A program made the translations under genes and the position numbers. Below are positions 8,211-54,003 of a DNA stretch of 64,000 bases, one piece after another. The notes beneath the pieces are model-generated. The model was not told where the DNA came from, searched no databases, and worked only from the letters and a program-made list of their open reading frames with translations. This DNA comes from Isurus oxyrinchus. Its lineage: Eukaryota. Each line of letters opens with the position of its first letter. Position 1 is the stretch's first letter. The DNA lies in contig JANJGN010000007.1 in the NCBI GenBank assembly GCA_026770705.1, positions 109,802,001 to 109,866,000 of the forward strand, given 5' to 3'.

Positions 8211-8265
8211 ATGTCGATGAGACTTACAGTTCAGTACATGGCTCTTCTGGCCATAAGTTTTCCAG
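8211..8265 (+). CDS. A1 exon 1, signal peptide
   Basis: MSMRLTVQYMALLAISFP+G; 55 nt; phase-1 donor CAG|gtaccc. Confidence 0.75.
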
Positions 8266-11200
8266 GTACCCGTGGTTGTTATATGCTCTGTTTTGGAATA
8301 GCTTAAATCGCATTTAACGCCCAATTGTATGCATTATAAAAATACATACGGTGCTTCTCCAATTCGGCTGCATTTGTTTTTTAATTGTTTTTATATTTTT
8401 CTCCTTATAGTTAGCTTTCTTTCTCTGACGTATGCAACTGCTGTCACCGTTCTTTTTTTTAAATAGCCGCCAAAGTAACTTCGAGCAAAGTGGATCAGTT
8501 CCCTAAACTCTTGAAGGCTGCCAGGGGTGACAATGTTTCCATGTTCTGCACATTTCCCATATTTGAAGACGCTCCTGAAGTTCATTGGTGGAAACGCAAC
8601 GAAGAATCGTTTCTGGAACCGGACAGTCGGAAGCGAGTCAATGTAAAAAAGGGAAGCAGTTCATTTGAAATTCTGAATGCGAGTGTTACAGACTCCGGGA
8701 TGTATTACTGTAAAGTAAAACATCAGCAAAGCTCTATTGGAGATGGAAGTGGCTCCCAGCTCATTGTGTGCGGTAAGTGTCAATGTACCGAGGAAAGGGA
8801 GTTCTTCAGCTGTGTGTGTGAGATATGTAATTTGAACTTTTATTACTAGATGAAAATCTTCATCATAAATTTAGGTGAACACTCCCCTTCTGAAGACAAG
8901 AATATTCCACGCACAAGATAACTTGTTGGCAACTGCTCAAAATTGCCAATTGAATCATTCTGTATCCAAGTGTCCGAAATTTGAGATGGACATCAAGAGA
9001 AAGGAACCATAGGATTCAAGAGAATGGAATTAAATCGGATAAACGGAATTCAGGGAGGGACCAACGATAATTTAAATAAATGACAGAGTAAATTCGAGGG
9101 AAGGAATGGCCTACTCCTGTTCTTATGTCCGCAGTTTATGCTGTGCAATTGTATCCATTGATAACTTGTTTGAAATGCCAAACTATTTCCGCAAAAGAAT
9201 GAGAGGGGGAGATGTTTATTTTGCCGTCAATTCTGGATTCCACCCCAAGTCCTAGATCTTCAGGGGCAATTAAGACGCCCAATGCCCTGTTTCAAACTCC
9301 GTGGTACGCCAATTAGATTTTTTCTGATGCACTCAATTCTGGTAAAGTGGAGGCAGGACACCAGCAAACATTTCTGTAAACGCCTGGGTCCTCATGTTTG
9401 TAACTCATGATTTCCATGCACACTCCTCATAGTCAGACGGACGTTACGGCATAAGGCCAAGGGACCACTGGTTGCTTTATTCCCAGTGGAAATTCTGTCG
9501 CATTTTGTATTGTACCAAGAGCAGATCCATGAAAAAAGAATGGTGAAATTCTGAGGCTTTGCTGCGAATGAAAACTCAAATAATTTTGAAAGTTAATAAT
9601 GGCTCTAATTTAATCATTTTCTTTATCCACAATTCAGAAAGTGCAAACGTGTGAAGAAAAGAATTGAAGGAGATTGATTATAATAAACAGCAAAACAATA
9701 CAAAACGAACAACGGACTTTACTTAGCTAAACAGTGATTGGAGATCGAGCTGACACAAGTTCACATTGCTAAATGTTAAATGTAGGACTCACATTAAGAA
9801 AATTCTAAAGGCAGAGCGCGTTTAAAAGACCAAATGAAATTCTAGAAGGGCAAAACCCGTGAAATTATATAAGACATGCATTTGATTAAGATTTTCTGTT
9901 CGATTTCACTGATCTGCATGGATGTTGTGATCTACACACCGATATATAATTGCCAATAAAGCCCTTTCATAATCAGAAATGTGTTTCAGCCCTCGGATTT
10001 CCTTCTAGGGAAAGTTCTTTTTGTAAAGGCTGTACGATCAGAAATCTCCACCATAGAAATATATAATCGATGCTAGCGCACGGATTTGAATCGATACATC
10101 TATCAACGTCTTGTCTGGAATCTTTATCGACGTCGGGTGATTTTCAATTGCACATCTTCTCAGTACTAATTGTTTAAACGAGCTATGTTTTGCAACATAT
10201 GAACTATTTGGAAAATGACAATTTAAAAAAAATAAACACAAAATGTTTAGTGGGACAATGATGATGACAGAAAAAGGTGAGAGTATCTCGCAGTTCGTGC
10301 GGACTTGTTCACGCTCTCTCCCATAGATTTGGATAGGGAATCTCATTTCTGCCAAAACCAATCCCACTCCAGGAGCGGATCTTCCATTCAGAGAAGTGCT
10401 TTGCGAATTTTCACCAGCTCCAGGAGATTCATCCTCGATGTGTATTGTTTGCAAAGCATCCGGGCATTTTGCCGTTCGCCGCAAAAAGATTTTCAAAATA
10501 AATACAAACTTAAGGTTTTTTTAAAAAACGATAATTATTGTCACATCATAACGGAGGGAAAGAAATGACAATGTGTTCATTAATTATTTTTCTCTGTTAA
10601 AGTTCCCCCAAGCCCCCTGAAAATCCTTTCGGTTGAAGGAATTTCAGCGAATTCTCTGAAACTCGAGTGTAAAACGTCTGCCTTTTACCCGAACGGTTTA
10701 ACAGTTTCCTGGAAAAGAGATGGTGTCCAAATTCTGACCGGAATGGAAATTGTGAAAACTGAGACCGTGGATGGGCTCTACGAGGTCTCCAGTTCTTTGG
10801 AAGAAGCACAGCCTGTCTGGAACAAAGTCATTTATTCCTGTCTGGTATATCACGTCTCTCTTGAGGTGCCCGCCAGTGTCAGCTACACCATCAATCAAGG
10901 TAAGATTGGAAACAGTTACAGCAGCAAGTGGGGTATGTGCTCCAACCTCTATTTACTTTTTAAAAAATCATTAATGGGACGGCCGGTTAGGGGGTTTTAT
11001 GACAATCGACATGGTCATCATTAAACTTTTAATTCCAGGTGTTAATTGAATTCAAATTCCACCATCTGCCATGACGGGATTCGAACCCAGGGTCCCAGAA
11101 CATTACCACGAGCCTCTGGATTATTAGTCCAGCGACAATAGCACAACACCATGGCCTCCCCTTAATTTGCTACAAATGTAGCTGGACTGCACTAAAAATC

Positions 11201-14200
11201 AACCAGGGTTTCCATTCCTGAACATCATCAGGAACTGGAACTGGAAACTGTATGTGTGGGCGAGACAACGATCCTGCTGGTCACTCGTAACCCCCACCAT
11301 CAAACACCCCACCAACACTCACTGATTTGGTTCTCACAAAAAGGAATATGAATTTGAATGACTGCCAGCACTTATGGAACTGTCACAGGTAAGAATTGGT
11401 AGCTTCTGCAGAGGAAAGCATAAAACTGGAATGAGAAAGAAATTGAAAATCAGTTCCAGCATGAATCATCTACTTTTCCAAAACCTGGTTTCCTTTGCAA
11501 CACTGCCCTCCCCACCACCCCACACTGCTTTGTGTGCTCTACCTTTACTGGGATACTCTTCAGTTATCTTGGTCTCACACTTCCCTCTTCCTAATTCTCT
11601 GCCCTTTTTTAGCTTCCTCCACCCCAACTCAAAGCCTAGCACTGAACAAGCCTTCAGTTACGTCCCTAGCCTCCTTTCAGAAGTCAAGCCATCGCTCTCC
11701 TTTGCAGATCACTTTGGGATACTTTGCTACGTAGTTATCTGATTGCACACTTGTCTCTGAGTTAATAGTTGTGGGGTCAAGCCCCTGTCCCAGATTTGTG
11801 CACTGAGAGTTACTGTCTTTCAGATGAACTGTTTATAGTTCACCCCTCTCCTTGGATTCACCTAGTTTGGTTGAAGGGTCGAAACGTCAACTCTTCTTCC
11901 CCGCCGATGCTGCCAGACCTGCTGAGTTTTTCCAGGTAATTCTGTTTTTGTTTTGGATTTCCAGCACCCGTATTTTTTTGTTTTTATCTCTTTCTTAAAC
12001 GGATGTCCTAACTGTTTGTTAAGGTGGATCCTGTAGCATTTATTAATATGGGCATAGAGTGTAAGAGCAAGCAGGTTATATTGAAACTGTATAAGACACT
12101 AGATCGGCCTCAGCTGGAGCATTGTGTCAAAATCTGTGTGAGCACTTTAGGAAGGACGTGAAGGCACCTGAGAGTGTCCACAAATGATTTACCAGAATGG
12201 TTCCTGGGATGAGGAAGTTTAGTTATAAAGATTGGAGAAGTTGGGACTGTTTTCCTTGGAGAAGAGAAGACTGAGAGGAGATTTGATAGAGTTTTCAAAA
12301 TCAGAGTAGAGATGGATAAAACTGCTCCTACTCGTGAAAGGATTGTGAATGAGAAGGCACAGATTTAAAATAATTGACAAAAGAAGCAAAGACGATTTGA
12401 GAGAAAACCTTTTCACACAGCGAGTGGTTAAGGCCTGGAATGCCATTCTGTGATTCTGTGATTACCAAAAGAGTGAAGGGGATCCTCTTCAGTGAACTGG
12501 CCAAAATTTATCCTGCTGATTTTGCCTACATAGCAACAGTGAGTGCACTTTTGTGAGGTGCTTTGGGATGTTCTGATGTTGTGAAATATATTTTCTTTCC
12601 AAGGGTGCTATGCAAATAAAAGCACGTATTACAATTGGGAACAAAATGCTTTCGAAATCATGGCTTCTGCACTTAATGGAAACCAGCAGACTATATCCGT
12701 GATGAGAGATATTTTGATATACAAACTCGAATATAAAAGGTGAATGTGGACTATATTTACCCCCAATGTCACATTAATCGGCATAAAATAAAATAATCAG
12801 ATGGTTTGTTGCTGGAGGAGGGAGAATATCTCCCTGAAGAGATCAGAGGGAGGTTGATGTGAGAACTACTCAAAAATTGAAAGCTCCTTCCTTTCATTCA
12901 TTTCTTGCCAAATGAAACGAATTTATACATAAAATGGATCGGGTCGAACAGATTCAATTTTATATCATGTGCATTTAAATTCAATATATGGACATATCAT
13001 TTTCTTGATCTCTTCTCAGCTGTCTACACCCTAAATTCAGAAATTTCCTTCATCTCCGGCTGCCAGCCTTTCCTTCTTTAAGACTCCCCTTCAACCCCAT
13101 CTCCACCTCTCCTAGTGTCATTTTATGTGAGTCGGTGTCCAGTTTTGTTTGATAAAGTCTTGTGAACTGGCTCAGGACGTTTGTTTGCTCCAAAAGTGCT
13201 ATATGAATGCAAACTTCACCTGGAATACTATGTACAGTTTTTGCCTTCCTACTTAAGAAAGGATATAATTGTTTTCAAAGGAGTTCAGAGACATTTTACT
13301 TGACTGATTCCTGGGTTGAAGAGACTACCTTATGAGAAAAGATTGGACAGGCTGGGCCTGTATCCATTGGTGCTTAGTAGAATGAGCGGTGTTCTTATTG
13401 AAAAATTTAAGGTCCTGAGGGGATTTGACAGGGTGGATGCTGAGAGAATGTTTCTACTTATGAGAGAGACTGGAATTAGGAATCACAGTTTAAAAATAAA
13501 TGCTCTCCCATTTAAGACAAGGAGATTTTTTTCTCACGTTAGTCTGTGGAACTCGCTTCCCCAGCGAGCGGTGGAGACGGAGTCATTAAATATTTTTAAG
13601 GCTGAGTTAGATAGATTCATGATTGACAAGGGAATCAAAAGCTATAGGAGACAGAGAGGAAAGTAGAGTTAAGGCCACATTCAGATTAAGCAAATGGTAG
13701 AGCTGGCTCAAGGGGCCGAATGGCGTACTCCTATTCTTAATTCGTATGTTCACATGTAAATTGTTCTTGTTATCTACTAAAATTTGCAGTTAGTGTTCTC
13801 TGGTAAGGCTGCTGAGATGTGTGTCCGCGCTAAAGAATGGAAGCCTTTACCACATTTTGCAGCCGTTGCCCATCAATCTGGTGCAGAGCGGCAGGGCAAA
13901 AGTCATGCAAGTCCCCTTACTCCTAACAAACAACAATCCTGTCCAGAGAGAAGTTCCCTGTGCCTGTATGTTTCCTCCATAAATTGCATTACTAATGGGC
14001 AGTTAATGTCGCTTGATAAACTTATAATCCTTGCACAGTTAGTGCCCTCAGAACTGAAAACAGTCGAGCTCCACTGACAGTCGGTGCTATTATCCTGAGA
14101 GAAACCTCTGTAACTTGCCCTGGGGGCGTGATTCCCTGTGCATAAATCTCGCTCTGTTCTAACTTCCTTATTTCAATTATTTGTTGATCCCTTAGGTGCT

Positions 14201-17200
14201 GGTGTCAATCTTAAGCTCATTTTTGGATATTTGGCAGGCGGCATATTGGCAATTTTACTACTGATAATTATTTTGACGAGACTCAAATTGAAAGCATCAG
14301 CTGGTAAGTACATTTTTTTTATTTTGCCCCATACTTCTATTTTCTAGGGCCCAGATATACTGTTAAAATACATAAAGGGCAGATTCATTGTGAGGGACTA
14401 AAGAGGACCTTGCTGCACCTTTAAAGAATGAAGCTAATACCACAAGAGCATTGTGTGATTGGCAGTTGAAATGACAATGTAAAGCGGATTTTGAAATGCA
14501 AATACTTAATCTTCTCATTATAACTATCCACTTATGTATACAGTTCCATTTTGCTAGATCAGGAATCGTTATGGTTCTGTTTTTTTTTAAATAACATCAG
14601 TGCGGGTCCAACTTTTAGAATGTAAACACTTTTAAAGTGGACTTAGGCTTTCTGCGGTAACGTAAAACGGCTGATTTCGAGCTGTTAACCGGTTTTACGT
14701 CTCCCCCGGATTTTCCTTCCATTGTAATGTTGCGACCTCTTGCCGACTTTTTGCCGACTCTCTGTCATACGTTTTACACTGTCGCACAAAAGCAAGGTCT
14801 ACTCCATTGGCTACAGTGCCACTGAGACTAATGAGAAGGCAATGCACAGTACATTGCAGCTGATATTGCTGAACACCTTCAGACATCATGGGCGGCATTT
14901 TACACCTGCGGAATTTTATGGTCCAGCCGCAGTCAATGCACTTTTGAACGGCTCGCCACATTTTACGGGGACGTAAAATTTCCTTACTTTATACACAGTA
15001 AATATGCTTAGAATCGAAAGCAAGATACTGGCTTTACTGGTGCTGATTCTGTTATTCAAGATGGATTTGTCTCTTTTAGGCATTAATAGAAATTCTGTGG
15101 AAGCAGCTCACAGAGAAGAGCCGGTAAGATTCTTATATTCCAAAAATGTGGCAAGGAGTGAGGAGGCGGTGTGTAGGAGGGGATACCAATAATGTTATAT
15201 TCAGCCGAGAAGATATTAATTAGATTTCAAATAGTCATAGGAGGTTATAGCACGGAAGGAGGCGATGGTGCGCCTGTGCAGCCTCTTTGAAATAACTACC
15301 TAATTAGATCCACTCCCACACACTTCACCTATAGCTCTCATTTTTTTTATTTTCAAACATTTCTCCCCAGCCCTTTTTGAAAGTTTAATTTCAATCTTCT
15401 TCCGCCACCCTTTCAGTCAGTGCATTCCAGATGACAACAGTATTCTATGCAAAAATCCTCATCTTCCCCTGATTATTTTGCCAATTAACTTAAATCTGTG
15501 TCCCTGAATATCGATGAAAACAGCTTCGCCTAATTTACTCGAACGAAACCTCAGAATTTTGAGATTAAATCTGTCCTTAACTTTCTCTGCTATAAGGGGA
15601 ACAATAGTAGATTCTATAATTTCTCTGACGTCACTGAAGTCCCTCATTCCTGGTGCCATTCCAGTAAATCTCTTCGCCAAGGCCTTGACATCCCCCATAA
15701 AGTGCAAAGACTGGAATGGTGCACGATAGCCCAGGTGAGGCTTGGCCAGTGATTTCTAAATGTTTAGCATTATTCCTTGTTTCTGCATTCTACTCCTTTG
15801 TTTATAAGTCCAAGATAAATACTTATCTTTACAGCAACATATACTTCTGACCACTCCCCCTTTCATAGTTCAAGTTATTTCTAAAATGGGAACTATCCAG
15901 GTGCCTGATTGCTTAATGTATTCATTATTAGCACCAGAAGACAGATCAGGAGGGTCCCAGCTTCTGTCTCCGCTCCTGTTGTATTGGTTGATCCAGGCTC
16001 GGCAACTGCTTCAGATGGTTCAATTGGCCTGAAATCTGTACCTCTGGGTTCAGCAGTGCCGCTTGGAAGTCGAGGTGGTGATTGGGGGCGGGGGTGGGGT
16101 GAGGTGTGGGGGTGGGGTGCCGGGAGAGAGGGTTTCTTAGGGTCTTGGATGCGATTTGCCACCTCGAAATGGAAGGAAGACAGACGCAGACTTCGTTGTC
16201 AGGTCTTCCAATAGGCTGGGCTGGCTGAGGAATAAAAAGACGGCCATTGCTCCAAGGAGGTGAGGGGGAGCTGGAGTTAATTGGAAAGGAGAAATGTGTA
16301 TTATCCATTAGATAGTTATTAACGGTGCTCCATATAATGACGATTTGAAATACATTGAGCGCACTGGGTTCCATGTCTAAAACATTACTCCAACCCAGTG
16401 ATGAGATGTTGGACACAATAATTGAGAATTGACAGAATGCACTTGTGACCTCGTTTTATGTTTGCTGTCTGCATATTACACTCTCAGACTCAGCTCCAAT
16501 TGAGTCTGAGCTATAGAGACGGGCCCGCCTCTTTCAGTATTTCATTTCTTACTTTTACAGGTTAGTCAAGAGCCAAATAATGAAATTGCTGCCTACGCTA
16601 GTCTAAGCTTGAGACACGACAATAGACCCTCCAGACGGAGACACGAGACAGAGCACACCGTCTATTTCCAGGTAAAACCGAGGGATTGAAGCGAATAATA
16701 TCCAAACCATTCCCGCACCATAAAATATCAACGTTCCGTGATAACAAAGTCAGTGTTGACAAACTGTACAGAGTCTCAAGGAGTAATTCTGACTCCAGGA
16801 GACAGAATAAAACGAGTCCTAAAGAACGGTCACCTCTCCCACAGACTTGGATGGAAACAGCAGTCAGGAGATATGTAAATGGATCTGTGGACTCTTATCA
16901 TTGATTTGACACAACAGCAGAGTCAAAATTATCCGCGTTTCTTTGCCGGGTCTGGCTGTGATAATAAATGCGCTGAGCTACACAAAAAAACATTAAACTG
17001 ACAGGTGTCACTAACGCCCATTTTAGAGACAAAACAGGGAACCGAGAACCGCCTGTCCTACACCACCAAGAAAAATGCGAAACCCAGGCAAAGGGAGAAG
17101 AGTCCGGTCTATCCCCAGGTACAGCTCAGGTCATTTATTGTAATACCGCTACGACGGGCTGCAGGAAGTGGAAAAGTCCCAGGTTTAACCTATCAACTGT

Positions 17201-22640: not shown

Positions 22641-23627
22641 GAACACTGAGATCCATGTCACAGAATGTTGACAGCACAGAAACCGGTCATTTGGCCCTTT
22701 GTCTCCATGCCAGCTCTCTGCAAGAACAACTCTCCTAGTCCCTGACCCCTGTCTTTTCCCCATAGCCCTACATATTTTTCTCTTCAGATAAGCGTCCAGT
22801 TCCTCTTTCAAAGCGACGATTGAATCAGATTTCATCCTTTTTTCATTTTTCTCCTCTGGTCTTATATGCTGGTGCATTCTTATGTTTATACACTCTGACG
22901 CTTCATGTCACACTCTGGTTATCATTACCCATATCGCTACACTACGCTATTGCGTTGGCCGTTCATTTTAATTCGCTACATTTTCCCTCACCTGATGTAA
23001 TCCATGATGTTCAAAAGCTATATGAATAAATAAGTCAATGAGACAAACTGGATTACTTTTTCAGAACCACCCAGTGCACTAATCAAATGGCTTCCTGCAC
23101 TGTAACCGAACCCAATGACCAGATAAACTATGGTTCGGTAATCAAACCACTCAGATTTAAGAAGAAATTGGCAAAAGAACAACAAGGCAGAGGAGTCGAA
23201 AGTATTTTACAAAATAAGTTGCTAGCATCTGGAGTTCCATAGCTGGACGCAGCGCTAGTAATTTTCAGGAGGGAATTGGATAGATGCTTTAAAAAAAAAG
23301 CAGGGCTTTTCAGGAAAAAGCAGAGGAGAGGAACGAATTGTATAGCTCTTTCAAAGAGCCAATCCGGGCACAATGGGCTGAGTGGCCTCCTCCAATGCCC
23401 TGTAACTCAGTAATTCTAACATATATAACACCTTTCTTTCTCTATTCAAGAATCCACGTAATATCAAGTTCATGTTAAATAATGTTTAAAAAACCAGTGA
23501 AACACGACGTTACATGACCTGTCCTGAGCATGTCTTTAAATTATGGCTACAGAAATAAAATAATAATTATCATTTTATGCTTCAAAAATATTATTTCAAT
23601 AGCAAAATCATTTTCTTTTCCTCCCAA

Positions 23628-23923
23628 TTTTGCCCATTCATCACAGAATCTAATCGATTGAGTCTAAATTCTGTCCATCAACTTCACCGGCTCTCCTGTG
23701 CAAAACAGCTCAGTTTTACCTTGAAGATCTCAATGTGACTCGTTAAGAACAGGGCGAAAGTTGGAACCGGGACCAATAGTACTAAGCAGCGAATCACGCT
23801 GGAAATGTATGAGCCTTCCAGCACTTTAAAATAACCGTATCAACCAGCAGTGAAGCTACATACAGCTGCCTAGAGCCTCATCTTTCTCTTCAGACCCCAA
23901 TATGGTCGATTAGAAATCTGAAG
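23628..23923 (+). pseudogene. Subfamily B C1 pseudo-exon, copy 1
   Basis: VLPIHHRI*SIES..LLCKTAQFYLEDLNVTR*..MYEPSSTLK/ITVSTSSEATYSCLEPHLSLQTP; acceptor reads ccaa instead of ccag. Confidence 0.8.
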
Positions 23924-24230
23924 GTGTGGTCTTGTTTTCAGGAACCCTTGCTCGCTTGTCGTTTTTCTTAATGCAAGGACGATTGTGAATCCGTGTTAGC
24001 ATTTGACGCTGTTGCATTCCCACATTGCATTGAGCATTTATTAGCCCGATTGTAAATTGCTTCACGAGTTGGCATTTTTTTGAATATCTTTAAAACATAC
24101 TTGCACTGGTACTAAATGTTCATTAAACGATTTGTTCTGAACTCGTTTATCAGTGCTTTTTTTTGTTGGTGCTGGTTTTATTGAACTTAATGCCAGTCGG
24201 TCTGACATCTCTGCCATTCTTTGTTTGCAG

Positions 24231-24345
24231 GCACTGCTAACGTCGTTGCCCTCTATTTGACATCCGGCCATTAGTGTGTATATTGGTAATTATGACGCTG
24301 ATTGGCTTCGTTAAGAATTATTTGAAGCTTGAGATACTTGCAAAG
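24231..24345 (+). pseudogene. Subfamily B TM pseudo-exon, copy 1
   Basis: tttgcag|GTANVVALYLTSG/LVCILVIMTLIGFVKNYLKL..|gtgaga; 1-nt frameshift. Confidence 0.75.
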
Positions 24346-25609
24346 GTGAGACACCCCTTTATTACCAGAACGCAGCGTCACTTTGCAGATCATGTTTTTG
24401 AAATAAATAGGAGATATAAATGAATGCTCTTTGATCGTGGACATTTGGATCGCTATTCACACGTTGAAAGATTTTATCCCTGGAAATAGCTGATTCACAG
24501 TTCCGACGATTATTACTCCAGACTAGCAGTATCTTGCGAGAGAAAAGACCTCATCTGTCCATTCTGGAGTAGCAATGTTGCGAAGATATTTGGGGAGTTA
24601 CCATGTTGTGGGGAAATGGCGGAAGTGTTGTAAAAGAATCCACATAAGATTTCACTAGAAGGGGCAGGAAGACGAAATATTTCTGTTTTTTAGAGTAAAA
24701 TCCCAGCCGTCTCGATAACAGGCTAATGATTTGTTTAATTATTGTTTTAAAAAAGGAAAGATTTATATTAGTATCCTACACAGTAACCAGACTTGCCAGA
24801 GCCCTTTGCAGTCAACTTTGAAGAACGTTCATTGTTTTGATTAGGAAGCCTTCCTGCAAACGTAGGCACAGCAAATCTCCAAATTAGCAACGTGATTATG
24901 ACCAGATATCCTGTTTTTTTTTGGTGATTTAGTGATTGATTTGGTCAGGACACTGGGGATAACGCCTCCACTTTCCTCAAAATACTACCAAGCGGTCTTT
25001 GACGTTCACCCAAGGGGGCAGATGGAACCTAGGTTCAACATTGCATCGGGATGACATCAACTAACAATGCAGGACTCGTTCAGTGCTGCACTGGAATATC
25101 AATCTAGATTGGTGGTGCTCAAGTCCTGGAGTGGGACTTGAACACGCAACCTCCTCTGGCAGGTGTCAGAGTGCCAACAACTGAAAAATTGCTGGCACTC
25201 AAATTAATATAAATATAAAAGAAATGGGAAAACTGAAGGGAGAGCATATCGAGGTCTTTGAAATTATGAAAGGTTTTGATTTGGTAGATCCAATGAAAAT
25301 GTGTCCGCTCTTGATCGAACCCAAAACTGGAGGGCAGAAATTGACAGTCACAACTGGATCCAATAGGTAATTCATGAGAAGATTCTATAGCCAATAAGTG
25401 GTAAGAAGGTGGAGTACCAGATACAAAGCGGTAATTGATGAGAATACAAGAGATACATTTAAAGGGGAAGTTTCTAATGAATTTGAGGCAGAAAGAAATG
25501 TGCAGATGTGCAAATGGAAATACAAGAGGAGGGCTGGGAGGATCATAAATGTCAGCATATATAAGTTGAGCCCAATAGCCTTTCATCAGAACTGGAAAAA
25601 TAAAGAGGA

Positions 25610-26110
25610 AATCACAATTGTCAATTTACATTTATATAATGCCATAAAAATAGAAAGGTGTACGAAAGTGTTTCCCAAACCTCAACCAAAAAATATAACG
25701 CCCAGTCAAAGAAATGCGTATTAGAAGGGAAGCAGCAAAAGTTTGATCGAAGAGGTGGTTTTAAAGAACAACGTTAATGGACGAGAAAGGACGCAGAAGC
25801 GATGACATTTAGAGAGAGAGTGGAGTCTAGGCAATGGAGGGAAAGGGATGATAACGTGTTGCACTCCAGCAGTAGGAGAATGCAGATACGGGGAGCGATT
25901 GGCTGGACGAGTTACTGAGATAGGGAAGGCCAAGGCCAAAAAGAAATGTAAGTGAATATGAGAATTCAAAATTTGAGGCACTAGAGGTCGGCAATTATAG
26001 GTCGGCCAGGATAAGAATAATGGGTGAGCAGGAGTAGTTACAGGAGATGATGCGGGCACCAAACTTTTGGATGAACTAAAGTTTATGCAAATTAAAAGTC
26101 AGCAGGACTG
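25610..26110 (-). mobile_element. Old L2 3' fragment (paralogue at about 56770-57260)
   Basis: Reverse complement resembles the L2 end at 265-625 (ILNSHIHL, LFFKT). Confidence 0.5.
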
Positions 26111-26744
26111 GAAAGACTCAGCTCAGATTGTTGAGATATAATTGGAGAGATCGCGATCACGTGTGGTGGTGTAAGTGGGTGGGCAGTCTGTTTTACGTCT
26201 CTCCAGATTTTTATTTCCATTAACTTGTATTGATCAATATTGGTATTTAACTCGCCAAGGATAACTGTGTCTGCTGCAAACGACTGAGATGGGGTGCAGA
26301 CGGATAACGTCACAGAAACAGAAGTAGACAGTCTTTGCAATGGAGAGGATGTGGTGTCGCCAACACAGAGAATTTCATCTGTGAATTTGCTTAGGACCGC
26401 TGTGTTAGGGTTGAAATCTGAATAACCTATAAGACGGGCATGGAGCAAACGGGAGAGTGATGGATAAATAAACGTATTGTTTGATCGAGGAAGGATGACC
26501 ATAATCGATCCCAAAAGTTAACTCCGTTTCTCGACACAGGTGTTGCCCATCCCACTGAACATTCCAGCATTTTCTGAATGTACTTCAGGCTTCCAGCATC
26601 TGTAGGATTTTGCGTTTGTGTTGCAATGGGATAAAATTGTTCCATCTCACCAAAATAACGGTGCCACAGTGCAACAATGGAAGCAACTTTAACACCTCCT
26701 TGATCAAGTCGTTTACACAACATTAATGATCACTCAATTCACCT

Positions 26745-28702: not shown

Positions 28703-28999
28703 TACCACCAACACCACTGAAAATCATTCCTGTTGAAGGGATTTCAACGACTTCTCTGAACCTTCAGTGTAAAACGGCTGCATTTTACCCAGAGGATTTA
28801 AGAGTTTCCTGGCAAAGAGGTGGTGTGGAAATTCTGACCCGAATAGAAACTGTGAAAAACGAGACCGTGGATGGGCTCTACGAGGTCTCCAGTTCTTTCG
28901 AAGAGGCACAGCCTGTCCGGAACAGAGTCGTTTATGCCTGTCTGGTGTATCACGTCTCTGTAGAGGTGCCCGCCAGTGTCAGCTACACCATCAATCAAG
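28703..28999 (+). pseudogene. A2 C1 exon (open frame, donor GT changed to CT)
   Basis: VPPTPLKI..LQCKTAAFYPEDLRVSWQRGG..YACLVYHVSVEVP; intact acceptor; CAAG|ctgaga versus CAAG|gtaaga in A1. Confidence 0.9.
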
Positions 29000-30004
29000 C
29001 TGAGATTGGAAACATTTATGGCAGCGAGTGGGGATGTGCTCCAATCCCTATTTACTTAATAGACATGTGGCCGGACTATTGTCCAAACTCGATTATACAG
29101 GGTGAATGTGGACTGTATTCATTCTCACTGTCACATTAATAGGAATGAAATAAAATAACCACGATAGATAGCTGGAGGGGGGAGAGTATCTCCCTGAAGC
29201 GATCTGAGAGAGGTTGATGTGTGATCTGCTCTAAAAACTGAAAGCTCATTCCTCGTCACATTCTTGCCAAAAGAAACGAATTTACACATAAAATGGATCG
29301 GTTTTAGCACAGTTACTTCCATCTCCCCTATATTTAAATGGAACATATGAGAATATCATTGTGCGCATCAGTTTTTTCTGCACTGTGCTTTTAGCTATTT
29401 AACCCATAGACTCAAAAATTCCCGTTCTAAACATTTCCGCCTCGCCAACTCTCCTTTTAGACGCTCCCTGAACTCTACCTCTACGTGCCGGAATATCAGT
29501 TTATGCGTCTTGATTTTGTTTGATAACGCTGCTGTGAAGTGCATTTGGGTGTTTTGCTACGTTAAAAGCGAAGTATTCTTGTTACTTACTGAAAGTTGCA
29601 GTAGGCACCCTTGGTAAGCCTGCTTAGTAGTGTTGAAGATTGGAAGATTTTGCCACTCTTTGCAGCCGATGCGCATCTGTCTGGTGTAGCACAGAAAGGT
29701 AAAAGGTGTACGTGTCTTAATCTTAACAAACAACCCACACGTCCAGAGAGAAGCTTCCTGCGTCTTTATCGATTTATTCCCTCCATAAATTGCGGTACTG
29801 GCTTCCAATTTATATCGTTTGAAACACATTATAACCCTTGTGCAGCTACTCCTAACTTATGAAAGCGGCCGGTCCCCACGGACATTAAGCGGTTACCCAA
29901 GGGATAGCTTTACAGCTCGCCCTCCTGTGTCTGACACATAACTCCCTATATAAATCTCGCTGTGTTCGACAGGTCCTTATTTCAATCTTTTGTTGATCCT
30001 GTAG

Positions 30005-30109
30005 GTACTGGTGTCAATCCCCTGCTGGTCTTTCGATGGACAGGGGGCATATTGGCGATTTTACTATTGATAATTATTTTGACTACACTCAATTTAAAAG
30101 CATCAACTG
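30005..30109 (+). pseudogene. A2 TM exon containing Arg
   Basis: GTGVNPLLVFRWTGGILAILLLIIILTTLNLKAST; both splice sites intact. Confidence 0.88.
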
Positions 30110-30234
30110 GTAAGAGCATTTTTTACTTCGCCACATACTTTATTTTTCTAAGGCCCAGTTATACCGTCAAAAAACATGAAGGGCGGTTGAATTTGTATGG
30201 AATTCATTGCCACAGAAGGCTTGGGAGATCAGGT

Positions 30235-30409
30235 TATTGAGTGTATTTTAGACCGAGATAGATAGGTTCTTGATTGGTAAAGGGATCAAAGGTTACGGGG
30301 AGAAGGCGGAAGAATGGGGTTGAGAAACTTATCAGCCATGATTGAATGGCGAAGCAGATTCAATGGGCCGAATGGCCTAATTTCTGATCATATGTCTTAT
30401 GGTCTTATG
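30235..30409 (+). mobile_element. CR1 3' end
   Basis: EIDRFLIGKGIKGYGEKA and tcttatggtcttatg tail; absent from A1. Confidence 0.8.
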
Positions 30410-30976
30410 AATAGTGTTTCATGAAAAAGGAATAACGAGCACGTTACTGCATCTTTAGATAATGAAGTTGATACTACGAGAGCGTTATGTGATTGAGTAT
30501 TCAACATGAAAATATAAACCGATTTTGGAAAGCAAATATTTCATCTTCCCAATGGAACTATTCATTCGGTTTATACACTTCCAATTTGCTACACCCGGCA
30601 TCCTTCACGTTCTGCATTTTCATAAATTTCAGTGCGGGTCCAGACCTCGAAGTGCAAACGCTTTGAAGTGGATTTTGAATTTCTGTGACAGTGTAAAACG
30701 GGTGATATGGAACTGGCAGTCTGTTTTACGTCACTGCCTGATTATATTTCCATTGTAATTTTACGATGTAAAATGGTTTGCCGACTCTTTGTCACATGTT
30801 TTAGACTATCGCACAAATGGCAGTGTGTTCCATTGGGTGCAGCGTCACTACGGAGCACTTCAATTTTCAAGACTCCTTCTTTTGCATAATTAAAGCGTTT
30901 AGCTTGGAAGTCAGGTTATTCATTTTACTTGCACACTCATTAAATTATTCCAATTGGATTTCTTCTCTTCCTGTAG

Positions 30977-31008
30977 CCGTTAAGAGAGATTCCGTGGAAG
31001 CTGACTAG
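30977..31008 (+). pseudogene. A2 exon-5 homologue ending in a stop
   Basis: cttcctgtag|AVKRDSVEAD* versus A1 GINRNSVEAAHREEP. Confidence 0.75.
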
Positions 31009-31114
31009 AGTGATGACTCGATGTGGTGAGAATGTTCTTCATAGTCCAAAAAGAGGGGTTAGCGGGTAACAGCAAGAAATACTGCAAACAGCCGAGAAGG
31101 ATTTAATTACATTT

Positions 31115-33385
31115 CATAGAATCATAGAAATGCAGTTATTATGCCTATCCCGCTTCTGTGAAAAAAACTATCCAATTAGCCAAATTCCCCATCTTTACCC
31201 AGAACACTTCATTTTTGTTTGTTCAAGAAAATCTCTAATTCGCTTTTTTAAAGTTTCCATTGAATCTGCTTCCTCCAACCTTTCAAGAAGTGCGTTCCAG
31301 ACCAACAACCGGCTACACATAAAAACACTCACCTTGTACTGATTATTTTGCCAATTACCTTAAGTCGACGTCCATTGGATACCAACCCAACCACCACTGA
31401 AAACACTTTATCCATATTCACTTCTGTCAAAACTCTCATAATTTTGAATACCTCCATTATATCCCCCTTTATGTTTCTCTGCTCTGAGGAGACCAGTCAT
31501 GGGTTCTCTAGTCTCCCCAATGTAACTGAAGTCCTTCATCCCTGGTACCATTCTAGTAAATCATCTTTGCAACGGCTCTTAATAATGGTGTTACCAGAAT
31601 GGGACACAATGCACCAATGAGGCTTAAGCAGTGATTTATAAAGGTCCAGCATAAATTCTTTCTTTTTGCACCCCGTGTCATAATTCATAAGGCCAGAATA
31701 AACGTGTGTTTATTGTATCATACACTACTGACGGATACTGTTTCATCATTCAAATTATTTCAACAATACGAAGTCCTTAGATGCCCAGTTGCTTAATTGG
31801 CACTTTGTGTAGCATAACCAGATGTGTAGCATAACTTGGAAGGTGCCTAGTTAAAAGTATTAAAAAGAAAGAACATGGCAATAGTGCAGGGTAAAGATAT
31901 CGGTCATGATAGCCGCAGTGTGACAGAACGTAAAGGCAATTGGGTGCACCAGCAAATCGGCTCAGAGTAAGGAAAATGGTAAAGGGACAGAAGTAACCAC
32001 TCTGTATCCGAATGCAGCCAGCATTTCGAACAAGATAAGTGATTTGATGCTACACATCGGTGTGAAAGCAAGTTCTCAGCAAGTCACAAACAGAATACAA
32101 AGGGATATAGATAGGTTATGTGAGTGAGCAATAATTTGGCAGATGGTGTATGATGTGGGAAAAAGTGAAGTTATCTTCATTGGAAGGAAAAGAAGAAAAG
32201 TGTAATATCATTTAAATGGAATGAAACGACAGAATACTGTGGTACAGAGACAGAGGTGAGGAAGAATTTCTTCTCTCAGAGGTTATGGGGGATGGGGGGC
32301 TGGAGGTAGGAAAGTGGTGTTGAGGCCAGAATCAGATCAACCATAATCTCGTTGAATGGTCTACTCCTACTCCTGCTTCTTGTGATATTGTCGTTAACCT
32401 TTGCAATTTTGTACCAAGAGAGCAATGGAGGCTGGGTAATTGAATATAATCGATGTTGTATTAGACAGATTTTCATTTACGAGAGTGCTGAGGGTGATTT
32501 TATCTTGGAGGGGTGGATGGTGGAAGGAAAGAAAGACAGAAACGAGAACAACTTGCCCTATGCCACTGTCCAAGCCAGCACCAGGAAAAAAAAGACAAAG
32601 CACAGGCTGACCGAGGAGAATACAGGACAGCTGAAATAATTGATTGAAACCGTGTAAGTGTAATGTGGTATGATGCGAAGCTGTAGGAATTGAAAAGGTC
32701 CCAGTTTTAATAAACCAACTGGTTGTGTCAGTTGATCTCAGACAAGGTTCATCAGATTTGCCTCATGTCCTAGAACAGAAAGACCTGGGAGTAAATGTGC
32801 ATCAATCTTTGAAGGTGGCTGGGCAAGGCAAGTGGGCGGGTAGCAAAGCTGAGGGGATCTTGGGCTTCATAAATAGATACATTAAGTGCAAACGCAGGGA
32901 AGTCATGTCAAACATTTATAATGATTTGCTTAGGCCACAGAGTATCGCATCGAGTTCTGGTCACAACACATTAGGATGTGTGGGCCTTTCGGAGGCTATA
33001 GAGATGATGTGCCAGAATGGTTCCACGCATGGGGCATTTTGAGGGGAGATTTGATAAAGCCGTACAATATTATAATAGATTCAGAGAAGGTAGACAAAGG
33101 AAAACTGTTTCTATTAGCTGATGGTACAGGGACAAGGTTTTGGGCAAGAGATGCAGGGGGAATGTGAGGAAAAACTTTTCAGACAGTGTGTGGTAATGAC
33201 CCATAACTTGATGCCCACCAGGGTGGTGGAAGCAGAGTTCAATGATTTCAAATGGAAATGGGATGCTCACTTCAAGATTATTTCCTTCCAGGTTTACAGT
33301 GATAAGAGTCGGGGAATGGAACTGACGGAATTGCTCCGTGGAAAGCCTTTAGACTGGGTGGGCTGAATACCCACCCTCTGAGCTT
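31115..33385. mobile_element. Cluster of degraded CR1 fragments (about 31115-31700 minus; 32080-32390 and 32770-33385 plus)
   Basis: EQKDLGVNVHQSLKV, LRGDLIK and related CR1 motifs. Confidence 0.7.
32529..32625 (+). pseudogene. A2 exon-7 relic with ITIM LPYATV
   Basis: KKDRNENNLPYATVQASTRKKKTKHRLTEENT; no recognisable acceptor. Confidence 0.65.
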
Positions 33386-33522
33386 CCAGTGGACTCTGAC
33401 TTTAAACTGAATTTGATAATTGATGAGTGCAAATTTCATTACAGCCTTTTTCTAAGCCCTGATTGCCTCAAGCACCGAACTGACGATAAACTAACAGGTG
33501 ACATTAAATATTACTTTCACAG

Positions 33523-33646
33523 ATTAAAGAGCCTGAGTTACGCCGCTCTGCAGTTTGCTGATTCCAGGAAAACATCAAAATCTTGACAGGAAGGCGAACA
33601 TGTAGTGTACCCAGAAGTGAACAGGACAAAGAAAGAGAGAAGCTGA
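33523..33646 (+). pseudogene. A2 terminal ITIM exon relic
   Basis: 17-nt deletion causes a frameshift; LSYAALQFADSRKTSKS*QEGEHVVYPEVNRTKKERS*. Confidence 0.85.
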
Positions 33647-40200: not shown

Positions 40201-42075
40201 TCCTTGGAATATGTTCTACCCAATGCACCAAAGAGGAATGACCTTTGTGCACCGAATTCCTACTTTGTATCAAATTCTCAAGTACTTACTCTGTTTCTGT
40301 CTCATTCAGGCATAATGGAATATTTACTGGAATATGGGTTGAAATGGGTTTAAATCCCACCTCAGCAGCTTTTCAATTCAAATAATAATATCTAGAATAT
40401 GAAACCATCCTTGATTGTTGTGAAAAGAAAGCAACTGATTCTCCGATGTCCTTTAGGGAAGGAATCTGCCATCCTTGCCTGGCCTAGCCTACATGTGATT
40501 CCAGACCAACAGCAGTGTGGTTGACTCTTAACTGTCCTCTGAATTGGCTAAAGCGCCACTCAGTTAAGCGCAATTAAGGGTGAGCAAGAAAAACAAACAG
40601 GAAGTGGCTTATTGGCTACAGTGATATTTGAAATCAAAATATCTCTCTTCAAGTAATAAGCTCCTTCAGGCTGAAATGCAAGATAAGCCCCTTCACATGG
40701 ATCAAAACAAATGGTCTGATAAAGGGAATTTTAATGGATGGGTTTCTTTAAACAACATTAATGCATGCCCCTGGTTCTGCTGTGATTCATGTATGAAAAC
40801 AACCAGGATGTGGGAAATGTCAAAAGGAACTGTTCACGGTATCGGCTACCAGAATGCATAGATGAAGTAGCTCACTTACTCCTACTTAACTATTTCAATC
40901 TTAGCTAGTTCGAAGCATAACTAAGCTTGCAATCAGAAATGCTATAAGTTCTCGTGAATTCAGCTAAGAGTCTGGAAGCCAAAGCTTTCATTCCAATGGC
41001 GCCATTGTATCCGTGAAGACTGAAGCTATGCACACTGAGAAAAGAAAGCTTGGCTGATTCACCCGAGGGAATGGTTAAATTACAAGCTGCTGTACAGGCA
41101 GCTTTTTTAAAGGGCATTTTCATCCTTGGTCATAAAGAATGTTCCAGACATGTTGCCATATAACAATCCTCCGACAACCAATGTTGCCCTTATAGAACTT
41201 CTACCCTCGGAGTTTAGTGCTTTCTGTTTCAATGAAGATCCATAAACGAGGGACAACAACTCAAGAAGCACTTTAAAATTACAGCAGTAATGTGAATACT
41301 GGAAATCTGAAAGTACAACAAGAAATGCTCTAAAGTTTGTCCAGCATTTTCTATTGGCTCAAGAGATGTGGCAAGGGCAGCATTAATTATCCATCCCTAG
41401 TTGCCCGTGAGAAGATGATGGCGAGCCCCTTCTTGAACCTTTGCATTCCATGTGCTGCAGGAACACCCACACGGCTGTTGCAGGGTGCAGAGGTGCGGAT
41501 CAGTTCTGGGAATTTGACCCTGGGGCACTGAAGGAATGGCAATATATTCCCAAGTCAGGATGGTGTCGGTTCTGGACACCATACGTTAGCAAGGATGTGA
41601 AGGCATTAGAGAGAGTTCAGAAAAGCACAACAAACGAGGGGAGAAGAAATTGCTTCACAACAAAAGTTGCTATGAACTGGAATTCACGACATGGGAGCAG
41701 GAATTGTAATTTTCAAGTGGGAAAATGGATCGATACTTAGGAATAAAAAGCAGGGCTTTGGAGAAAGAGCAGGAGAGTTGAACTAATTGCACAGCTCATT
41801 CAATGAGCCAATACAGGCATGGTAGTCCGAATTGCCTCCCAGTATGTTCCATGATTCAGTAATTCTAGCATGTATATTACTTTTCTTCCTCTATTCAAGA
41901 GTCCATGTACTTTCTAGCTTCATGTCAAATAATATTTGAAAACACAGAAATTAAAAACGCACCGATGAAATATCACGTTAAAGGACCTGTCCTGAGCGTG
42001 TGTCTAAATTACAGGCTGCAAAAATAAAATAATAATTACTATTTCAAAAGCGAAATCACTTTATTTTCCTTCCAA

Positions 42076-42375
42076 TTTTGTCCATTCATCTGATCTTCGA
42101 CCCGAGTGAGTCTAAATTCTGTACAGCCAATTCACCGACTCTCCTGTGCAAAACAGTTCAGTTTTACCCAGAAGATCCCCATGTGGGTCGATATTAAGAA
42201 GAACGCGAACATTGGAACCGGGGAAATTACTTCGAAGCAACGAACCACGGTGGGAATCTACGCGCCTTCCAGCACTTTAAAATAAATGGCATCAACCAGC
42301 AGTGAAGCCAAATACAGCTGCCAAGTGTCTCATCTTTCTCGTCAGGCTCCAACATTTTCAATTAGAAGTGTGAAT
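42076..42375 (+). pseudogene. Subfamily B C1 pseudo-exon, copy 2
   Basis: LLCKTVQFYPED..IYAPSSTLK..AKYSCQVSHLSRQAP; same ccaa acceptor lesion. Confidence 0.8.
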
Positions 42376-42599
42376 ATACAGTCATTTGTTTTTTTCCGAA
42401 ACTCTTGCACGTTTGACGTTTTTCTTAATACAAGGAAGTTTCTGAATACATGTTAACATTTGACGCTGTTGCATTTCTTTGTTACATTCAGGGTTTATTG
42501 GTTGGACTGTAATTTTTTTCATTGCTGGCATTTATTTCAATATTCTTCAAATATATCTGCATTTGTATTAAATAGCCTTTCAACGATTTGCTCTAATCA

Positions 42600-45256
42600 C
42601 ATATATGAGATGATATCTTGGAGGGGGCATCGAATGAAGCTTTCTGGGTAGAGCTTAGCAATAAAAAAGGGGCAACCACATTATTAGGTGTTTATTATAG
42701 ACCCCCAGATAGTCATCGGGAAATTAAGGAGCAAATATGTGCACAATTTCTGGAGGTGTGTAAAAACAATAACAATAGGTTAATTATATTAGGTGATCTT
42801 AACTTTCCCAACATTAATTGTGTTAAGGGCTTAGACGGAGTGGATTTCTTGAAATATGTACAGGAGAACCTTTTAGGTCAATATGTAGAGGGTTCAACAG
42901 GGGATGGTGCATTGCTGGACCTAATTCTGGGGAATGAAGCCGGACAGTTTGCTGAGGTACTGGTGGGCGAGCATTATAGCGATAGCAACCACAACCTGGT
43001 ACAGTTTAAGTTTGTTATGAACAAAGAAATCTAGAAGTTGCAAAAAGATGTTTTGGATTGGGGGAGAGTGGATTTTAGTAAAATAAGGCAGGATCTGGCC
43101 AAGGTAGACTGGGAACAGTTACTAGTTGGGAAGTCTACAGAGGAACAGTGGGGGGGGTGTTCAGAAAGGAAATGGGGAGGGTACAGGCTCAACATGTTCC
43201 TCCTAGGGTTATAGAAAGAAGTAACAAGCCCAGAGAACCATGGATGACCAGAGATATACAGGTTGCGATGAGAAGGAAAAGAGAGGCTTTTAGCAGGTAC
43301 AAGGGAAGCAAATCAGCAGAGGTATTAGTGGAGCACAGAAAGTGAAGGGTGGAGTTTAAGAAAGTAATTAGGAGAGCAAAGAGGGGATATGAGAAAGCTC
43401 TGGTTGGTAAAAGTAGGGAAAATCCCAAATATTCTATAAGTATATCAATGGGAAGAGGATAACCAGGGAAAGAGTAGGGTCCATAAGGGACCAAATGGGC
43501 AATCTATGGGTGGAGCCAGAGGACATCGCTAGAGTGCTGAATGAATACTTAACTTGTGTCTTCACCCAAGAGAATGAAGATGACTATTTCGAACTCGGGG
43601 AGAGAGACTGCGAGGTTCTTAAACAAATTGATATATGGAGTGACAAGGTATTGGAGGTGTTGGCAGGGTTAAAAGTGGACAAATCTCCAGGTCCAGATGA
43701 TTTGTGTTCCAGACTGCTGAGGGAGGCAAGGGAGGAAATCGCAAGGGCTCTGACCCGAATTTTTAATTGCTCTTTGGCCACGGGGGAGGTGCCTGAGGAC
43801 TGGAGAACAGCTAATGTGGTTCCACTATTTAAGTAGGATTGTTGAGATAAGCCAGGAAACTACAGGCCAGTGAGTCTCAAGTCAGTGGTAGGAAAACTAT
43901 TCGAGAAAGTTCTGAAGGAGAGTATCCATTTCCACTAGGAGAGGCAAGGTTTGATCAGGAATACTCAGCATGGCTTTCTCAGAGGGAGGCTATGCCTAAC
44001 AAATTTGATTAAATTTTTTGAGGAGGTGACCAGGTGCATAGATGAGGGTAGTGCAGTTGATGTAGTTTATTGGATTTCAGCAAAGCTTTTGACAAGGTCC
44101 CACACGGAGATTTATAAAGAAGGCAAATGCATATGGGATACAGGGTAACTTGATAAGGTGGATTCAAAATTGGCTTAGTTGTAGGAAGCAAAGGGTGATA
44201 ACAGAAAGATGCTTTAGTAACTGGAAGCCAGTATCCAGTGGTGTGCCACAGGGATCTGTACTCGGTTCCCTATTATTTGTCATTTATATAAATGACATAG
44301 ATGACTATGTGGGGAGTAGGATAAATAAGTTTGCAGATGACACAAAGATTGGCCAGGTGGTTAATAGTGAGGTTGAGTTTCTTGGGCTACAGGAAGATGT
44401 AGACGGGATGGTCAAATGGGCAAATAAGTGGTAGATGGAATTTAGCCATGAAAAGTGTAAGGTGATAAACTTTGGAAGGAGTAATTTGACAAGGACGTAT
44501 TCAATGAACGGCATAGCACTAGGAAGTTCTGCGGAACAAAGGACCTTGGTGCGTGTGTCCATTGATCTCTGAAGGCGGAGGGGCACGTTAGTGGGGTGGT
44601 GAAAAAGGCATATGGGACACTTGTCTTTATCTATCGCAGCACAGATTAGAAAAGTAGGGAGGTGATGTTGGAGTTGTATAGAACCTTGGTGAGGCCACAG
44701 CTGGAGTACTGTGTGCAGTTCTGGTCGCCACATTATAGGAAGGATGTGATTGCACTGGAGAGGGTGCAGAGGAGATTCACCAGGATGTTGCCTGGGATGA
44801 AACATTTAAGTTATGAAGAGAGGTTGGATAGACTTGGGTTGTTTTCGTTGGAGCAGAGAAGTCTGAGGGGTGACCTGATCGAGGTGTACAAGATTATGAA
44901 GGGCACGAACAGGGTGGGTAGGAAGCAGCTTTTGCCCTTAGATGAAGGGTCGGTCACAAGGGGGTATCGGTTCAAGGTGAGAGGAAAGAGTTTTAAGGGG
45001 GATCTGAGGAAAAACTTTTTAAATCAGAGGGTGCTGACGGTCTGGAATGCACTGCCTGGGATGGTGGTGGAGGCGTGTTTCCTCACATGCTTTAAAATGT
45101 ACCTGGATGAGCACTTGTCACGTCATAACATTCAAGGCTATGGGCCAAGTGCTGGCAAATGGGATTAGGTAGGTAGGCCAAGTCTTTCTCACGTGTCCAT
45201 TCAGACTGGAAGGGCAAAAGGGCCTCTCCTGCGTTGTGATTCTGTGTTTCTGTGAT
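42600..45256 (+). mobile_element. CR1 LINE, most of ORF2 (EN + RT), frameshifted
   Basis: GVYYRPP, ILGDLNFP, KSPGPD, SGVPQGSVLG, KFADDTK; gtgattctgtg tail; splits the B-copy-2 C1-TM intron and is absent from copies 1 and 3. Confidence 0.95.
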
Positions 45257-45336
45257 CCCTTTGGGTTTCTTGTTGGTGCTGATTTTATTGATATTATGCC
45301 TGTCGGTCTTTTATCTCTGCTACCCGTTGGTTGCAG

Positions 45337-45450
45337 GCACTGGTAACGTCGTTTTCCTCTATTTGGCATTCAGCATTTACTGGGTATATTAGTAATAATG
45401 GTGCTGAATGGTGTCGTTGGGCACTATTTGAAGCTGAGGTACTGCCAAAT
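45337..45450 (+). pseudogene. Subfamily B TM pseudo-exon, copy 2
   Basis: GTGNVVFLYLAFS/LLGILVIMVLNGVVGHYLKLRYCQ|gtgaga; same frameshift position as copies 1 and 3. Confidence 0.75.
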
Positions 45451-53385: not shown

Positions 53386-54003
53386 AATGCCAGGTGTCGG
53401 GTTAGGAATAGATGGTATTATCCAAGGAGCCTTCGTGAGTTCCTGCAGTGTGTCGTGCAGACGTTGTTACCACTGTGGGTCAATGGTGCAATGCATTCCT
53501 ACAACGCAAAGTTGTATTTTCTATAAGCAGGTGAACTACGATTCGGTAACCAACGAACGCAGATTTACGAAAATTGACAGAAGAGCAGGTGAAGGGAGGA
53601 AAATTGATTCACAAGGTAAGTTCTCTAGTGAGGAATTTCCTACCTGGAAGCAGCAATAGTAATTTTCAGGGGGGAATTGGATCGGTACTTCAAAATAAAA
53701 TGCAGGGCTTTGGAGAAAGAGTAGGACAGTGAGGTTAATTGCATTGTTCTTTCAAAGAACCAATACAGACACGATGGGTCGCATGCTCAATGACTCAGTA
53801 CATATATCACTTTTCTTTCTCTTTTTAAGAGTCCATGTAATTTTTAGTTCATGTTAAATAATGCTTGAAGGGCAAGAAATTAAAAACGCTCCGATAAAAC
53901 ACCACTTTAAAGACCTGTCCTAAAATTGTGTTTTAATTTACAGGCTACAGAAATAAAATCTCAATTAACATTTCAAAATCAAAATCATTTTCCTTTCTTC
54001 CAA

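Follow-up and report, generated by a model that had tools for sequence, protein, structure and literature searches.

How does a family of inhibitory immune receptors come by activating members, and how much of such a history can still be read in one genome? The question is raised by a window of 64,000 nucleotides from the shark Isurus oxyrinchus (GenBank assembly GCA_026770705.1, contig JANJGN010000007.1, here C7; C7:109,802,001-109,866,000, forward strand; plain positions below follow the numbering of the window), which holds two related genes, A1 and A2, for receptors with one VJ-type and one C1-type immunoglobulin (Ig) exon. A1 is the cluster member with an uncharged transmembrane (TM) segment, an open frame and a tail bearing immunoreceptor tyrosine-based inhibitory motifs (ITIMs; LIYAAL and STYAEV), and a sequence-only reading had taken A2, with an arginine in the TM segment and an early stop in the tail, for its former activating partner. 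Part of this stands, as the arginine and the short tail prove to be a lineage-wide switch; the switch, however, arose in the common ancestor of A2 and two further copies, G6 and G7, and not in A2 itself, and activation is a prediction from sequence. What the locus records is an old change from an inhibitory to a short-tailed form, common to several copies and still represented by an intact gene, G7.

What is left of A2? The following elements can be assigned to it.

26494..26495, no strand: deletion junction that removed leader and V exon, by sequence match to two sources
28703..28999, plus strand: C1-set exon, frame open, with 6 nonsynonymous and 6 synonymous private changes
29000..29001, plus strand: lost C1 donor, reading CT; G at 29000 in 4/4 DNA runs of organism A (introduced below)
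30005..30109, plus strand: TM exon, open, with AG/GT ends; arginine codon common to G7
30977..31022, plus strand: first tail exon, with TAG at 31006-31008 and the donor lost, both common to G6 and G7
32520..32639, plus strand: remnant of the third tail exon, without pyrimidine tract
33523..33646, plus strand: what is left of the last ITIM exon, its frame lost past the acceptor, with an in-frame TGA between two tyrosine motifs

A2 itself is a pseudogene, as its leader and V exon are deleted and its C1 donor is lost; the sequence-only reading had noticed the missing V exon and donor, to which the leader has to be added. Upstream of the junction lies the flank of a neighbouring pseudogene, downstream the V-C1 intron from a point about 260 bp past the V exon in G4, G6 and G7. 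Homology to the sister genes starts at 26494 and no leader or V exon was found between A1 and A2; a V exon of A2 hidden elsewhere in the window was likewise considered and rejected, none being found there. The C1 and TM frames are open as described, and the TM exon reads LVFRW at 30025-39 with the arginine codon CGA at 30034-36, where A1 has GGA. The next exon encodes AVKRDSVEAD and then stops (TAG, CAG in G8), and its donor has changed from GT to AT at 31021. Of the three kinds of damage proposed for the ITIM exons two are present, since these exons were lost through deletion, through a deletion that shifts the frame and through an in-frame stop within the last exon, and comparison with the sister genes did not find a second tail exon. 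The third, transposon insertion into the tail exons, was rejected: none is seen within any A2 exon, and the LINE-like pieces in the A2 intron also align to G8.

Is the arginine private to a dying copy? A survey of 464 kb around the window annotated eight same-strand VJ-C1-TM paralogues, G1 to G8 (A1 is G2 and A2 is G3). Searching the genome with the A2 TM exon returned seven matches, all on C7 within 0.28 Mb. The arginine is found in two of these seven TM exons (A2 and G7), while the TM exon of G6 is deleted after its first few codons. The stop codon and the loss of the following donor occur in 3/8 first tail exons, as TAG in A2 and G7 and as TAA in G6; G8 keeps CAG and GT. The ancestral TM sequence is FGCAGG (G4, G5 and the Heterodontus proteins P0003 and P0008), which makes G4 and G5 better comparators than the glycine codon of A1. 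From it the FRW of A2 and G7 is separated by two adjacent changes, G>R and C>W; the extra codon is a feature of A1 and G1. Further lesions in the tail are common to A2, G6 and G7: the second tail exon is lost, and the last exon starts out of frame and has a stop at one and the same codon. A tree of 3' non-coding sequence groups these three copies (100/100) with G8 as sister and terminal branches of 0.04-0.06, and they differ from each other by 11-13%. An assembly error or a private change as origin of arginine and stop was rejected, because both are common to other copies. Since arginine and stop are shared and the three copies form a 3' clade, the switch predates their triplication and took place in their ancestor. 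The alternative that had been set beside the original proposal, namely one G>C change within a pseudogene, is unlikely because the arginine and the stop are not private, an intact G7 exists and the tail decayed in the common ancestor; nor is the decay uniform, as the tail is degraded and the TM and C1 frames are open. The cluster as a whole is in a mixed state: G5, G6 and G8 are multiply broken, G1 is open up to its first tail exon and lost its ITIMs without gaining an arginine. In G4 the C1 donor has changed from GT to AT (C7:109,871,551-109,871,553; L015), while its leader, V, TM and ITIM exons keep open frames; a secreted V-C1 product could arise by read-through.

A search of the cluster for an intact paralogue with arginine and short tail yielded G7 (C7:109,989,481-109,994,827), about 160 kb from A2 and with the same arginine and stop. 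Its model is complete, with an ATG, AG/GT at each junction and an open frame of 264 amino acids, and the tail is free of tyrosine and 14 residues long counted from the first inner lysine. G7 is a mosaic. Up to about 109,993,600 it differs from the ITIM-type G8 by mostly 2-10% per 300-bp bin, whereas over the TM and tail exons it is 14-22% from G8 and closer to A2 and G6 (about 8-17%); by the approximately unbiased test a grouping A2+G6+G7 is rejected for the C1 region (p=6.5e-5), and a grouping G7+G8 for the 3' region (p=0.006). In G7 the arginine/short-tail module has thus become joined to the ectodomain of the ITIM-type G8 lineage. The history reads as follows. An ITIM-type VJ-C1-TM gene gained GGA>CGA in the TM exon, while its first tail exon acquired CAG>TAG and lost its donor. 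The ITIM exons, no longer used, then decayed, and the gene triplicated into A2, G6 and G7. By crossover or conversion, some 400 bp ahead of the TM exon, G7 received its G8-lineage ectodomain; A2 and G6 died.

How likely is an open G7 if nothing maintained it? Simulations with substitution and indel rates measured in introns let the whole gene survive neutrally in 3-6% of cases and the G7 TM exon alone in 36-52%; for A2 the figures are 8-24% for the C1 exon and 34-50% for the TM exon. These numbers bear on the possibility that an inhibitory gene was put out of action by the stop in the distant past, that A2, G6 and G7 are duplicated pseudogenes with the arginine as a passenger, and that G7 is open through luck and a recently overwritten front half. 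Such a history would fit a cluster in which most copies are broken, A2 and G4 as well as the multiply damaged ones, and the neutral survival of the G7 TM exon on its own. It is nevertheless quite improbable given how rarely the whole gene survives, that the C1 and TM exons of A2 are open too, that organism A has the A2 donor intact, and that the tail gathered several shared lesions while the C1 and TM frames held. A 2-base insertion in the V exon, present at about half depth in 3/4 runs of organism A, would also suit it, but its source may be the G8-like copy, in which the A-run is longer, and one X6 contig that crosses the site does not have it.

Organism A stands for four DNA runs from two studies, about 97% alike in this region and hence either a close relative or a divergent haplotype; the search of sequencing runs listed no RNA run. 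Its A2-specific contigs, in 4/4 runs, have the intact C1 donor and an unchanged arginine codon. Because organism A keeps this donor, the death of A2 is recent, at least at the C1-donor site. Of the A2-type changes in organism A none is in the 105-nt TM exon, against 29 fixed ones in the intron of 1004 nt (P about 0.05); the two TM differences that are listed belong to the G7-type contig. The private C1 changes of A2 (P=0.058 vs neutral) compare with 8:2 nonsynonymous to synonymous changes in the dead G6 and 6:1 in the intact A1. Pairwise ratios of nonsynonymous to synonymous rates for C1 with A2 (0.34-0.61) are like those of most other pairs and do not date the death of A2.

Do other members of the family carry the same combination? 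The A2 C1 exon has 59 matches in the genome, 58 of them on C7, and two blocks of C7 (96.4-97.6 Mb and 108.6-110.05 Mb) contain 57/59; further members with a charged TM segment may lie within these blocks. One of the matches is G9 (C7:109,364,922-109,358,583, minus strand; L049-L050), with leader, V and C1 exons, a distinct TM exon and a short tail, so that the intact cluster members with a basic TM residue and a short tail are G7 and G9. The TM exon of G9 encodes an arginine, 16 uncharged residues and an aspartate, and its tail has a single juxtamembrane tyrosine hexamer, VTYFQL. Its V exon is identical to that of A1 at 92/101 residues, and G9 is probably the true activating partner of A1. The G9-type TM segment also occurs in catshark (P0001, P0004) and Heptranchias (P0005, P0036), so this TM type is old; a second C7 copy with such a TM exon has a frameshifted C1. 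In catshark P0002 a cysteine has become arginine one column over, the protein has no ITIM and its ectodomain is identical to that of the ITIM-bearing P0053 at 188/200 positions. Mobula P0015 and P0020 have arginine in the same column (aligned by eye) and no ITIM; their ectodomains match the ITIM-bearing P0013 at 184 and 180/197 positions, and their TM segments are closest to the P0027/P0031 lineage. The catshark and Mobula arginines appear to be separate gains in an ITIM-type TM exon. All three arginine models (P0002, P0015, P0020) are devoid of ITIM-like hexamers, the two Mobula proteins not being independent of each other. In the ray homologues P0016, P0034 and P0044 the first glycine of the GG pair in the TM segment is replaced by lysine or aspartate.

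Near-identical ectodomains occur in opposing members: in the V domains of A1 and G9, in G7 and the dead G8, in catshark and in Mobula. The A1/G9, catshark and Mobula sets have the paired-receptor architecture that had been suggested for this locus, with a putative shared ligand and putatively opposite signalling. It is conceivable, if somewhat short of an even chance, that sharks and rays have a large and apparently undescribed paired family of non-rearranging VJ-C1 genes that gets activating members in two ways, through an old, dedicated arginine TM exon retained in different shark orders and through at least three fresh conversions of the inhibitory TM exon. On the same tentative footing, each conversion would consist of a single arginine gain with tail loss, followed each time by acquisition of the inhibitory partner's ectodomain.

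Would such a receptor signal? Maintenance of the A2/G6/G7 lineage as a short-tail receptor is very probable, and given this, coupling to an adaptor with an ITAM, the immunoreceptor tyrosine-based activation motif, is fairly likely; taken together, we slightly favour G7 as a predicted activating receptor that signals via FcR-gamma or CD3-zeta. In this scheme the arginine near the outer end of the helix would pair with the aspartate pair of an FcR-gamma or CD3-zeta dimer, and a ligand that inhibits through the ITIM member would activate through an A2/G6/G7-type member. Present in the genome are the FcR-gamma-like TM exons L069 and L070, together with L068, which is like CD3-zeta; all have the aspartate, as judged from the TM exons only. 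L069 and L070 are near-identical and lie on separate small contigs (C1723, C1648), as a duplicate gene or as uncollapsed haplotypes. An arginine at the N-terminal end of the TM segment marks Fc-gamma partners according to the text of PMC1440944. For A2 the best Kyte-Doolittle windows take in the arginine, at position 4-5. A predicted complex of the G7 TM exon with two FcR-gamma-like TM exons (score 0.03, mark 0.34) gave no verdict and was not used.

Several observations weigh against an activating G7. The best windows of 19-23 residues in G7 start after the arginine because the A2/G7 lineage no longer has two basic residues at the cytoplasmic border, the inner arginine and lysine having become isoleucine in G7; as the best windows begin past it, the arginine of G7 may be interfacial. 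The NxxR motif, common to FcR-gamma-coupled KIR-like and Xenopus TM segments in the text of PMC2413239, is absent, an asparagine lying six residues before the arginine in A2 and G7 and five in G9. With a single arginine placed in polyleucine, assembly reached only 11% of that of Fc-alpha-RI (as given in PMC1440944). Because NxxR is absent and the G7 arginine possibly interfacial, coupling of the A2/G7 lineage to FcR-gamma or CD3-zeta is a plausible prediction. The G7 leader has a Gly>Arg change within the hydrophobic stretch of its signal peptide (L027:3520-3522), shared with the dead G8; G8, which gave G7 its ectodomain, is dead here and the V domain of G7 is only 67/101 like that of A1; and tandem arrays yield chimeras neutrally too. 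The survival test on G7 was post hoc, one of three copies having survived, and the count of private C1 changes has little power because the intact A1 itself gives 6:1. For catshark and Mobula the tails come from automatic gene models, arginine and lack of ITIMs are not significantly associated among the database models (Fisher p=0.26), and ITIM-less models without arginine are common (15/27 classified non-arginine models, or 15/30 if three ITIM-bearing models missed by the pattern are counted; also G1).

Another reading is that of a maintained but non-signalling short-tail receptor of the decoy or adhesion type, in which ITIM loss was selected and the helix slid inward, leaving the arginine at the outer membrane face with no adaptor. 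The hydropathy of G7 and the missing NxxR agree with it, short ITIM-less tails without arginine exist in G1 and in the ray models P0014, P0017 and P0023, and every sign of constraint on G7 and A2 fits it equally well. We consider it less likely, as arginine turned up in three lineages in the same column or the adjacent one, always without ITIMs (an enrichment that, as said, is not significant), as the first inner basic residue of G7 comes 21 residues after the arginine, a depth similar to the 17 residues to the closing aspartate in G9, and as the VJ-C1 family already has an arginine-type module in G9. The arginine in the leader of G7 would suit the duplicated pseudogenes discussed above.

Could A2 serve A1 instead? 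A1 is a complete gene with leader, V, C1, TM and four tail exons and an open model of 383 amino acids.

8211..8265, plus strand: leader exon with ATG and GT donor, matched by leaders of shark homologues
8467..8772, plus strand: V(J)-type Ig exon (Pfam V-set/I-set), 92/101 amino acids identical to the G9 V
10603..10899, plus strand: C1-set exon (Pfam C1-set 5e-9) with splice ends
14196..14303, plus strand: uncharged TM exon with glycine at the switch codon
15080-15123, 16561-16671, 17029-17118 and 17677-17817, plus strand: tail exons, with LIYAAL and STYAEV in the last

A2 lies on the same strand about 11 kb downstream, its acceptors are intact and all junctions are phase 1, so that its C1, TM and short-tail exons might act as an alternative 3' end for A1 transcripts and give an arginine-anchored isoform with the A1 V domain. 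This is very improbable, as it requires read-through past the last A1 exon and the open A2 frames are equally explained by recent death. The third tail exon of A1 (17029) has an in-frame GAG at its acceptor, AAG in G4 and G5, and is without five codons after the first tyrosine; it may be skippable without frameshift. G1 (C7:109,757,067-109,765,976; L010-L011) is a near copy of A1 (V 96/101) without two of the tail exons and with a 4-nt deletion in the last, and is predicted to encode an ITIM-less receptor with an uncharged TM segment.

Which known receptors does this family resemble? The SIRP ectodomain is V-C1-C1, SIRP-beta1 uses a lysine with DAP12, SIRP-gamma is non-signalling, and NSFL1C neighbours SIRP. 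The cluster genes share with SIRP non-rearranging VJ and C1 domains and a multi-tyrosine tail in the inhibitory member, and SIRP-alpha is among the top profile matches (2wng, E 6e-17), antibody chains being nearly as good; NCBI often names homologues SIRP-alpha. They differ from SIRP in the single V and single C1 exon of each gene (the homologue P0011 has two C1) and in an arginine near the N-terminal end, with no lysine within the hydrophobic stretch of A2 or G7, instead of a central lysine, the residue that the text of PMC1440944 gives as the rule for DAP12-type partners. Synteny, followed by a single SEP-domain marker, gave matches on C5 and C12 and none on C7. We call the cluster family SIRP-like and not SIRP. 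UrIg, UrIg2 and other non-rearranging VJ-C1 genes of elasmobranchs are alike in their unsplit VJ exon followed by C1 (as described in the text of PMC12227049 and PMC10751288), and UrIg2 is the top summed PDB match. UrIg2 differs in its V-C1-C2-C3 structure and its linkage to the major histocompatibility complex (MHC) or antigen receptors, and the text of PMC12227049 mentions neither ITIM nor SIRP. Linkage to the MHC marks the VJ genes NKp30 and UrIg; in this genome 33 of 33 MHC class I matches are on C21 or C16 and none on C7, the core MHC not being located separately. The ectodomain is about equally like SIRP, UrIg2 and antibody chains.

In activating KIR and Ly49 receptors, as PMC2213150 recounts, TM charge and tail stop arose on one branch and were spread by recombination, and the activating forms are short-lived and recurrent. 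They too derive from inhibitory homologues, with the same one-branch history as A2/G6/G7 and a recurring switch; they differ in using lysine, or a type II arginine, with DAP12 and in belonging to other families of receptor, while the shark genes have an N-terminal arginine in a predicted type I VJ-C1 receptor. FcR-gamma-coupled arginine receptors (Fc-alpha-RI, LILRA2, PIR-A, NKp46, GPVI, OSCAR and Xenopus XFL TM1, as treated in PMC1440944 and PMC2413239) have in common with A2/G7 the short tail and an arginine in the N-terminal part of the TM segment, which in G7 may be interfacial, as well as ITIM-bearing relatives in the same cluster and adaptor TM exons in the genome. Compared with them, A2 and G7 lack NxxR and have a VJ-C1 ectodomain. 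XFL TM1 is moreover a separate TM type with the tail in the same exon, whereas the A2/G7 TM exon derives from an inhibitory one. Homogenization of ectodomains in paired receptors has been described as merohomogenization (PMC3210942), and here also signalling parts group by type and ligand-binding parts with the opposing gene (G7/G8, G9/A1, Mobula, catshark); the single breakpoint in G7, however, fits one crossover as well as conversion. We found no paper on this family or on such a switch in cartilaginous fish in the open-access literature, though supplements or subscription journals could hold one.

What would follow? The principle of the switch is known from mammals; if our reading is right, the birth-and-death cycle of KIR and Ly49 would extend to cartilaginous fish, with FcR-gamma or CD3-zeta and not DAP12 as the selecting adaptor and without NxxR. 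With the ancestral state (G8, G4), an intact product (G7) and the dead copies A2 and G6 next to one another, the cluster would allow a clean test of the question whether a single TM arginine suffices to recruit an ITAM adaptor. For this antigen-receptor-like VJ-C1 family the pattern points to a fast-changing ligand that pathogens perhaps mimic.

A second VJ-C1 subfamily is interleaved with the A-type genes throughout the cluster. Decayed copies of it occupy 23120-26495, 41621-45845 and 53528-57643 of the window, and better-kept yet broken copies lie at C7:109,735-109,737 kb and 109,785-109,787 kb.

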